Assembly (NCBI GenBank): GCA_963768625.1
Contig: CAVYIK010000003.1
Span: forward strand, 326,715 to 390,714
DNA length: 64,000 nucleotides
Source of the DNA: an uncultured bacterium
GTDB taxonomy: Bacteria; Patescibacteriota; Minisyncoccia; UBA6257; 2-01-FULL-56-20
Direction of reading: 5' to 3'
A model generated the notes under the pieces. The model did no database searches. It saw only the letters and a list, made by a program, of their open reading frames with translations, and was not told the DNA's origin. Position 1 is the stretch's first letter. Each line of letters starts with the position of its first letter. The position numbers were made by a program, and so were the translations under genes. Positions 56,189 to 57,312 of the stretch are shown here, one piece after another.

Positions 56189-57312
56189 ATGAAAATTTAT
56201 AGCGACGTGTTCGACCGCATCGTCGCCCCCGAAAACTTGTTCGCCGCGTGGGAAGCATTCAGGCAGGGCAAGCGGAACAAGCCGGATGTCCTCGTGTTCG
56301 AACGCGACCTTGAACAAAATATCTTTCAGTTGCACCGCGACCTCAAGAACAAGGCGTACCGTCACGGCCCGTATGCCGGTTTTTATATCCACGACCCGAA
56401 ACAGCGCCACATCCACAAGGCGACCGTCCGCGACCGCGTTCTCCATCACGCTATATTCTCGGCTATTAATCCGATCTTCGAGCCGACGTTCATACCGACC
56501 TCGTTTTCCTGCCGCATCGGTCTCGGCACGCACAAAGGAGTTGATGTTTTGGCGACGATGCTTCGGGGATGCACCCGAAATGGAACGCGTCCTTGTTTTG
56601 CATTGAAAGCCGATATACAAAAGTTCTTCGATAGTATCGATCACGGAATCCTCATCTCGATCCTCGAAAGAAGGATCAAGGATGAGAATGTGATGTGGCT
56701 CTTGCGATCTATCGTGGAAAGTTACAAGGCCACGCCAGTTCGAGAGAGAGAGAGAGAGAGAGAGAGAGAGAGAGAGTAAGCCCGGCCCGCGCTAAGGGCA
56801 TCCCCATCGGGAATCTCACCTCCCAACTCTTCGCCAACATCTATATGAATGAATTTGATCAGTTTATAAAACATACATTGAAGGTAAAGTCATATGTGCG
56901 TTATACCGACGATTTCGTGATCGTGAGCGAGGATCGGGAATATTTACGGAATCTCCTGCCGCTGATCGACGCGTTTTTGAGCGAGAAGCTTACCCTCACG
57001 CTCCATCCCAAGAAAATCATATTTCGGCCGTTCTATCAAGGCATCGATTTTCTCGGCTACATTGCGTTGCCGAACTATCGCGCGATTCGAACGAAAACCA
57101 AGCGGCGGATGTTCAGAAAGATAGGCCGAAGGATCGCAGAATATGAGCGCGGCGATATCCCAAGAGAGAAACTTGAACGGGTATTCCAGTCTTACCTCGG
57201 CGTTCTGTCGCACGCGGATGCCCACCGAGTACAGGAAGAGATGGTGAACTACGTCGTTAAAATAATTTGCTATACTGAAAATAGAAAGTCAGGGAGGAGG
57301 GTAGCGCCGTGA
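56189..57312 (+). pseudogene. DGR reverse transcriptase, out of frame at an internal (GA)17 run
   Basis: ORF 56189..56779 has RT motifs 1-2 (KPRHIHKATVRDRVLHHAI, LKADIQKFFDSIDH). ORF 56695..57312 has GIPIGNLTSQLFANIYMNEFD (DGR-type xGxxxSQ) and YVRYTDDFVIV. The two frames differ by 2 nt. Confidence 0.85.
56742..56776. repeat. (GA)17G dinucleotide microsatellite inside the RT gene
   Basis: Counted directly: 35 nt of uninterrupted gagaga..., encoding RERERE. Confidence 0.95.

Follow-up and report, generated by a model that had tools for sequence, protein, structure and literature searches.

The gene for the DGR reverse transcriptase (RT) in the stretch of DNA analysed here (64 kb, referred to below as the window) is divided by a perfect GA repeat, and this repeat is probably a slipped-strand phase-variation switch that gates DGR activity. 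The two RT halves flanking the tract are both intact and, as written, stand 2 nt out of frame with each other.

The DGR and the GA tract in the window

The tract sits inside a genuine DGR, which consists of a target gene with a variable repeat (VR), a template repeat (TR), a bAvd gene and the RT gene. The features of this region are as follows.

54262..55311 (+): DGR target gene, a 349-aa ORF as written, with the VR at its 3' end
55107..55239 (+): VR, at the 3' end of the target gene, from repeat comparison with the TR
55357..55384 (+): promoter-like site upstream of the TR, from a consensus scan in which the site count was no higher than in shuffles
55642..55775 (+): TR, from repeat comparison with the VR
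55823..56176 (-): gene for the bAvd accessory protein (Pfam PF22296 bAvd, E 3.8e-18)
56189..56779 (+): N-terminal half of the RT, a 196-aa ORF entering the tract, with a TAA stop at 56777-56779
56742..56776 (+): (GA)17G simple sequence repeat (SSR), read as (RE)n in all three frames; candidate slipped-strand switch
56777..57312 (+): linker (VSPARAK) and C-terminal half of the RT, offset by 2 nt from the N-terminal half, from the ORF frame and the bRT alignment
57393..57421 (+): terminator-like hairpin after the RT, a 13-bp stem followed by a T-rich tail, from a consensus scan only

All 27 of the 27 substitutions between the cores of TR and VR fall at TR adenines (A to G 16, C 6, T 5). The target ORF gave no Pfam match. 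Relative to the TR, the VR has a 1-nt deletion at AAC (VR 55200/55201, TR 55736-55737), which shifts the last ~14 codons of the target ORF and adds 24 codons, leaving the expected end of the target protein (GSVSGFLPQ and a stop) out of frame in the window. Indels adjoining AAC in the TR have been reported (Wu et al., 2018; PMC5758913), and the deletion could equally be an indel made by the DGR or a sequencing or assembly error. The bAvd gene is divergent from the RT gene, with 12 nt between the start codons (56176/56189), and the same divergent layout is seen in a related locus, L190 (3996/4001); the avd-RT start-codon spacing is thus only 4-12 nt in the two loci. This layout puts the TR beyond the 3' end of avd, on the other strand, so that a transcript spanning TR and RT would cross avd in the antisense direction. 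The promoter-like site could yield such a transcript, for which the consensus scan is weak evidence.

The RT is of the DGR type, with a match to Pfam RVT_1, a match to the bRT structure 8ub7 and the motifs GIPIGNLTSQ and YVRYTDD, its gene being interrupted as written. The tract is an exact (GA)17G, that is, 17 GA units and a further G, 35 nt in all. It is the sole dinucleotide repeat of more than five units in the window, and the expected number of occurrences of a 12-nt GA pattern, from 100 dinucleotide-preserving shuffles, is 0.00. The ORF from 56189 reads ...ATPVRERERERERERE up to the TAA at 56777, so that the upstream RT ORF ends ...PVRERERERERERE, and in the frame of the C-terminal half GIPIGNLTSQ (56797-56826) is followed by the catalytic YVRYTDD and a stop codon at 57310-57312. 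Removal of one GA unit gives a continuous RT of 373 aa, which matches RVT_1 with an E value of 3e-22, and addition of two units gives one of 375 aa. A preliminary description of this DNA had noted the uninterrupted 35-nt GA run, the end of the upstream frame at the TAA, the 2-nt displacement of the downstream RT motifs and the restoration of a full-length RT by loss of one unit or gain of two, and all four observations held when the frames were re-examined. Being a perfect repeat within an ORF, in which changes in unit number shift the RT in and out of frame, the tract has the sequence layout of a contingency locus.

Elsewhere in the window, the gene for tRNA-Phe(GAA) (52826..53104, minus strand) contains, in its anticodon loop, a group I intron of 206 nt (ARAGORN run with introns permitted; Rfam RF00028, 51.9 bits). 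Immediately 5' of it, likewise on the minus strand, lies a 232-aa ORF (53107..53805) for which no Pfam match was obtained, and which might be a candidate homing endonuclease.

Relatives of the RT at the protein level

The fused RT has thousands of homologues in Patescibacteria, the best of them 74% identical. Alignment places an in-frame (RE)n at exactly the same loop in about 30 of the top 120 relatives of the fused protein, and the remainder have no insert or an unrelated short loop. The closest solved structure is that of the Bordetella phage bRT (PDB 8ub7, E 3e-47), to which residues 4-175 and 196-347 of the query align over bRT residues 5-171 and 171-315, with the break precisely at the tract loop (residues 176-195). 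The segment had been described earlier as an insertion relative to the short loop usual at this position, and both the break in the alignment with bRT and its absence from most of the top 120 relatives bear this out. A relative that is naturally in frame (P0015) was modelled with AlphaFold2 (mean pLDDT 88). The pLDDT falls below 50 in the RE stretch and nowhere else, which suggests that the site is a permissive, disordered loop.

Closer relatives, up to 80% identical, were obtained when the N-terminal half alone was used as query. Among the 120 best matches to this half, 105 are truncated proteins of ~186-235 aa, ending either with RERERE directly before the stop or with 20-30 wrong-frame residues across the GIPIGNLTSQ codons, and 75 of the 120 end in or contain at least three successive RE units. 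The closest database proteins are thus mostly fragments of ~190-220 aa, several of them labelled 'hypothetical protein'.

Distribution and phase of the tract

At the DNA level, relatives were sought with a pattern consisting of (GA)6, a gap of 3-33 nt and the back-translated GIPIGNLTSQ, which matched 69 loci in GTDB species representatives and at least 120 in metagenomes. At this RT loop, uninterrupted GA runs of 12-71 nt are thus present in at least 189 further loci. Among the GTDB representatives and the matches listed from metagenomes, the loci assigned to named organisms belong to the CPR/Patescibacteria; a few records of co-assembly MAGs are labelled Gammaproteobacteria or Pseudomonadales, which we took as misassignments. 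Almost all complete loci have an intact N-terminal half (~185-200 codons) and an intact C-terminal half (~155-160 codons), and in 135 of the loci listed the two halves are full-length ORFs free of further stops.

Among the matches listed, 109 unique loci have both halves intact; 21 of these are in frame, and the rest are divided about equally between +1 (46) and +2 (42). In-frame loci make up 19% of the 109, against an expected one-third (binomial p = 0.0015), a depletion that could partly reflect the selection of pure tracts of at least 12 nt, and that is seen separately in the genome set and in the metagenome set. It points to an ON state that is disfavoured among population-majority alleles. 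The preliminary description had proposed checking whether related RTs have the repeat and how long it is; the outcome strongly favours its interpretation, with at least 189 loci that have the tract, ~80% of them out of frame with both halves intact, and with polymorphic lengths. Between out-of-frame alleles, dN/dS is 0.13 for the C-terminal half and 0.09 for the N-terminal half; values of about 0.1 indicate that both halves are under purifying selection and are not pseudogenes.

These values bear on the view that the gene is decaying, in a DGR that no longer works, and that the repeat has expanded in it neutrally. The RT of the window is indeed interrupted and its VR frameshifted, as such decay would have it, but the 135 loci with both halves full-length, the low dN/dS between out-of-frame alleles, the cleanly adenine-specific differences between TR and VR and the VR differences between near-identical alleles (see below) all stand against it, and we rejected pseudogene decay as highly improbable.

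Viral contigs served as a control: of 47 RTs that have the GIPIGNLTSQ motif but lack an SSR, 46 (98%) are uninterrupted ORFs, and the IMG/VR viral contigs gave no tract in phage DGRs, neither (GA) of six or more units nor G of nine or more. Other SSRs are almost absent from 911 kb of DNA flanking the loci, and most of the few abut the tract.

Two other explanations were considered and set aside. A general assembly artefact at the RT gene is at odds with the continuity of the SSR-free viral RTs and with tract differences that are always multiples of 2 nt. An RT made as two subunits is at odds with the out-of-frame loci, in which the frame of the C-terminal half, traced upstream from GIPIGN, stays open for just 6-77 codons; in the cases checked by hand, the ATGs directly after the tract (TAAATG...) are not in this frame.

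Reliability of the window assembly

The housekeeping genes of the window contain at least eight frameshifts, in the following regions.

57513..59767, 48193..50617 and 264..4126 (-): frameshifted housekeeping-gene regions, recognized from split or frameshifted ORFs

Three frame corrections are needed in glyA, which adjoins the RT gene, and residues 6-413 of the corrected product then align end to end with the SHMT 3pgy (E 8e-156). At least two are needed in folD; farther from the RT, gyrA is frameshifted once, and the genes for a PilB-like ATPase and a PilC-like protein are split. ClpB has an intact gene (25687..28332). The position of the indels, in or beside short homopolymers, points to an assembly that is error-prone and probably built from long reads, and with so many indels neither the exact GA count nor the phase of the window copy can be relied on. 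The phase as written is OFF, and the count may be miscalled.

A window consensus in error, with a true dominant allele of 16 or 19 units and an intact RT, would agree with the frameshifts in glyA, folD, gyrA and the two pilus-related genes, with the 1-nt indel in the VR and with the difficulty that dinucleotide runs present to error-prone reads. We nevertheless regard it as unlikely, if well within the range of what might be found. Only ~19% of the tracts of relatives among the matches listed, which come from many mostly short-read assemblies, are in frame, so that out of frame is the expected state for the window copy too; the RT halves, Avd and TR of the window have no further lesion; and an independent short-read Logan contig (ERR11594402_335733; L191) is 100% identical to positions 55682..56761 of the window and ends within the tract. 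This exact match of 1080 nt into the tract means that the tract is real and not private to the window assembly. That the window copy is truly in frame is plausible at roughly the background rate of in-frame alleles, and a miscall would bear on the phase of this copy alone, not on the nature of the tract. The preliminary description had held that relatives lacking the repeat, together with other inactivating lesions in this RT, would speak against a switch; the repeat is present in relatives and the RT halves are intact. Our searches found no other allele of the window's lineage, the closest DNA relative being ~74% identical; the N-terminal half of the window RT was itself absent from the protein collection searched, and a look-up of the neighbouring dcd gene gave no match.

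Tract length and VR sequence in near-identical contigs

Polymorphism was assessed between consensus contigs of different samples, all from relatives of the window. Clustering of the loci listed by 200 nt of flanking sequence gave 27 clusters, in ten of which the run length differs. Nine of these polymorphic clusters have flanks that are 100% identical and the tenth has flanks 96-97.5% identical, and the tract differences, of 2-10 nt, are always multiples of 2. Thus L034 and L104 are free of mismatches over 4108 nt and differ by one 2-nt gap, which lies in the tract; L067 and L154 agree over 1143 nt, again with no mismatch and one 2-nt gap; and L088 and L183 differ over 10193 nt by eight mismatches and one 2-nt gap. 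The strain group L071/L081/L088/L136/L183, with runs of 18, 20, 18, 18 and 16 nt, respectively, covers all three phases.

In some of these comparisons the VR has changed together with the tract. Over 7.1 kb, L106 and L145 differ by 16 substitutions, all 16 within the VR, and the sole other change is a 4-nt indel in the tract (15 vs 19 nt). Both alleles are out of frame, and an intermediate allele of 17 nt would be in frame; the VR difference fits passage through such an intermediate, and expression of an OFF allele by slippage fits equally well. Across VR, TR, Avd and RT, L081 (in frame) and L088 (out of frame) differ only by ~20 VR substitutions and 2 nt of tract, and the four out-of-frame samples of this strain have one common VR, from which that of the ON allele L081 differs. 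This pattern is anecdotal, and as a comparison of sequences it would be consistent with RT activity and VR diversification that follow tract phase. VR differences between near-identical alleles imply that the DGRs have recently been active, and in the contigs compared the mutable places are the DGR target and the RT tract. A separate stretch of ~400 nt upstream of the VR (3656..4069 of L088) has ~54 differences from L081, including indels, which are not adenine-specific; it may stem from recombination, or the target gene may have a second variable region there.

Other repeats and structures at the tract

A second type of SSR occurs at the same loop. In L190 the RT is split into 206 and 160 aa at a poly-G tract of 10 nt (4553-4562), and truncated RT proteins containing GGG among the relatives of the N-terminal half likewise point to poly-G. 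Poly-G runs of G9-G11, alone or fused to a GA run, were seen at this loop in L190, L026, L046 and L077, where the RT is split there too. The occurrence of a second SSR type at one loop argues for selection on the mutability of the site rather than on the RE peptide. In three loci (L015, 3042-3069; L024, 991-1035; L137, 712-737), (CT)7-13 stands directly before (GA)n, and the two together form a perfect palindrome that could fold into a hairpin or cruciform.

In ~20% of loci the tract is followed, 1-6 nt on its 3' side, by a small GC-rich hairpin with covarying stems, and the frame in which the hairpin nucleotides are read differs from locus to locus. Hairpins of this kind, such as GGCGC-TTC-GCGCC, TTTCGC-TTC-GCGAAA and GCGTCGC-TTC-GCGACGC, are present in, for example, L021, L054, L047, L020, L005, L001 and L129. 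Across loci the mean z-score for structure of the linker is -0.3; in the window the linker has a z-score of +0.4 and the hairpin is absent. A universal post-tract hairpin is accordingly not supported, the structure being confined to about one-fifth of loci.

The hairpin resembles a recoding stimulator and is of interest for the view that the RT is expressed whatever the frame, RNA polymerase or the ribosome slipping by 2 nt on (GA)n, with phase and length tuning the level of RT. All three frames read GAG and AGA, so that a 2-nt shift would re-pair both tRNAs perfectly. Dinucleotide deletions arise in transcripts at GAGAG motifs, a phenomenon known as 'molecular misreading'. Nearby structure is reported to stimulate slippage (PMC5737552). 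The nearly even spread of frames with both halves under purifying selection, the VR difference within the OFF/OFF pair L106/L145 and the covarying hairpins read in different frames would all suit such expression. We consider it improbable all the same. The loci have no fixed frame relation, both offsets and the in-frame state occurring, unlike known programmed frameshifts; the hairpin is missing from most loci and from the window; the four OFF samples of one strain have identical VRs; and length polymorphism in the DNA is directly observed and is sufficient by itself. In addition, in-frame alleles are significantly depleted, which means that phase is not neutral and argues against frame-agnostic expression.

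Proposed mechanism

Our working hypothesis remains that the tract is a phase-variation switch. The tract would lie in a disordered, length-tolerant surface loop just before GIPIGNLTSQ and be hypermutable, replication slippage adding or removing GA units. With each unit the frame of the C-terminal half, which holds the catalytic YxDD palm and the thumb, would shift by 2 nt against that of the N-terminal half, and alleles would cycle through the three phases, one giving a full-length RT with an (RE)n loop and the other two a fragment of ~190-220 aa that lacks the active site in the catalytic palm. Out-of-frame alleles would presumably be without RT activity. By chance, a minority of cells would then have mutagenic retrohoming of the target VR switched ON and the majority would have it OFF, and a tract slipping back out of frame would fix new VR variants. 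Switching of this kind would be fast and reversible, and the arrangement may be adaptive.

A broader proposal, that (GA)n and poly-G together form a clade-wide device making hypermutation stochastic, and that the tract may also be a new recoding signal, seems to us doubtful. Under the recoding variant, out-of-frame alleles would supply a low dose of RT set by tract length, which the adjacent hairpin could boost in some lineages.

To our knowledge, the control of DGR activity in nature is largely unknown, and unrestrained mutagenic retrohoming should be costly. If the switch is real, holding the RT OFF in most cells and ON in a few through a hypermutable tract would offer a simple, heritable form of control, amounting to bet-hedging on a diversity generator. 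Surveys and annotation pipelines that demand an intact RT ORF would miss or misclassify most such elements.

Comparison with known systems

DGRs are especially common in the candidate phyla radiation (CPR) (PMC8144416), where they have been treated as 'DGR clade 2' (Roux et al., 2021; PMC8144416) and in an earlier CPR set (Wu et al., 2018; PMC5758913), and the element in the window is a member of this CPR clade. It shares with other CPR DGRs, and with bRT-Avd of BPP-1, the adenine mutagenesis between TR and VR, a bAvd and an RT with GIPIGxLTSQ; unlike the bRT of BPP-1, it has an insertion of ~20 aa containing the repeat, which has no counterpart in bRT, and the RT of such elements is usually split. 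Neither of the two CPR studies (PMC8144416, PMC5758913) mentions frameshifted or SSR-bearing RTs. The preliminary description knew of no SSR switch on a DGR, and in keeping with this neither the searchable full-text literature nor the DGR surveys gave any account of a DGR RT with an SSR, a frameshift or phase variation.

Programmed frameshifting and transcriptional slippage, as in dnaX, IS elements and prfB, likewise join two frames at a slippery repeat within an ORF, and in some of our loci a hairpin lies downstream. In the DGR loci, unlike these cases, the offset is not fixed, the tract is polymorphic in the DNA and the stimulatory structure is not universally conserved; the one conserved frame relation of programmed frameshifting is absent from the matches listed (21 in frame, 46 at +1, 42 at +2).

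The outer-membrane protein genes oipA, sabA and hopZ of Helicobacter pylori undergo SSR phase variation through CT/GA repeats in their 5' coding regions. In a similar manner, the DGR tract is a perfect intragenic repeat in which unit number sets the frame, length is polymorphic and most alleles are OFF. Three differences from the H. pylori switches are apparent: the gated gene encodes an enzyme of targeted hypermutation, not a surface antigen; the switch is found in CPR bacteria, free-living or episymbiotic, rather than in pathogens; and the tract lies in mid-gene, in a loop of the catalytic domain, where it is translated as (RE)n when ON. Phasevarions, which depend on phase-variable Mod methyltransferases, and changes in a tandem repeat of mutL, which act as a reversible mutator switch, offer a second parallel, in that an SSR switches an enzyme affecting many downstream phenotypes or the supply of mutations, a second-order form of bet-hedging. 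The DGR switch differs from both in that it would govern the site-directed diversification of the ligand-binding region of one protein and not global methylation or mutation rate. By analogy with these systems, the mechanism would be classical intragenic SSR phase variation, and what appears to be new is the function gated, that of a DGR RT, and the breadth of its occurrence across the CPR.
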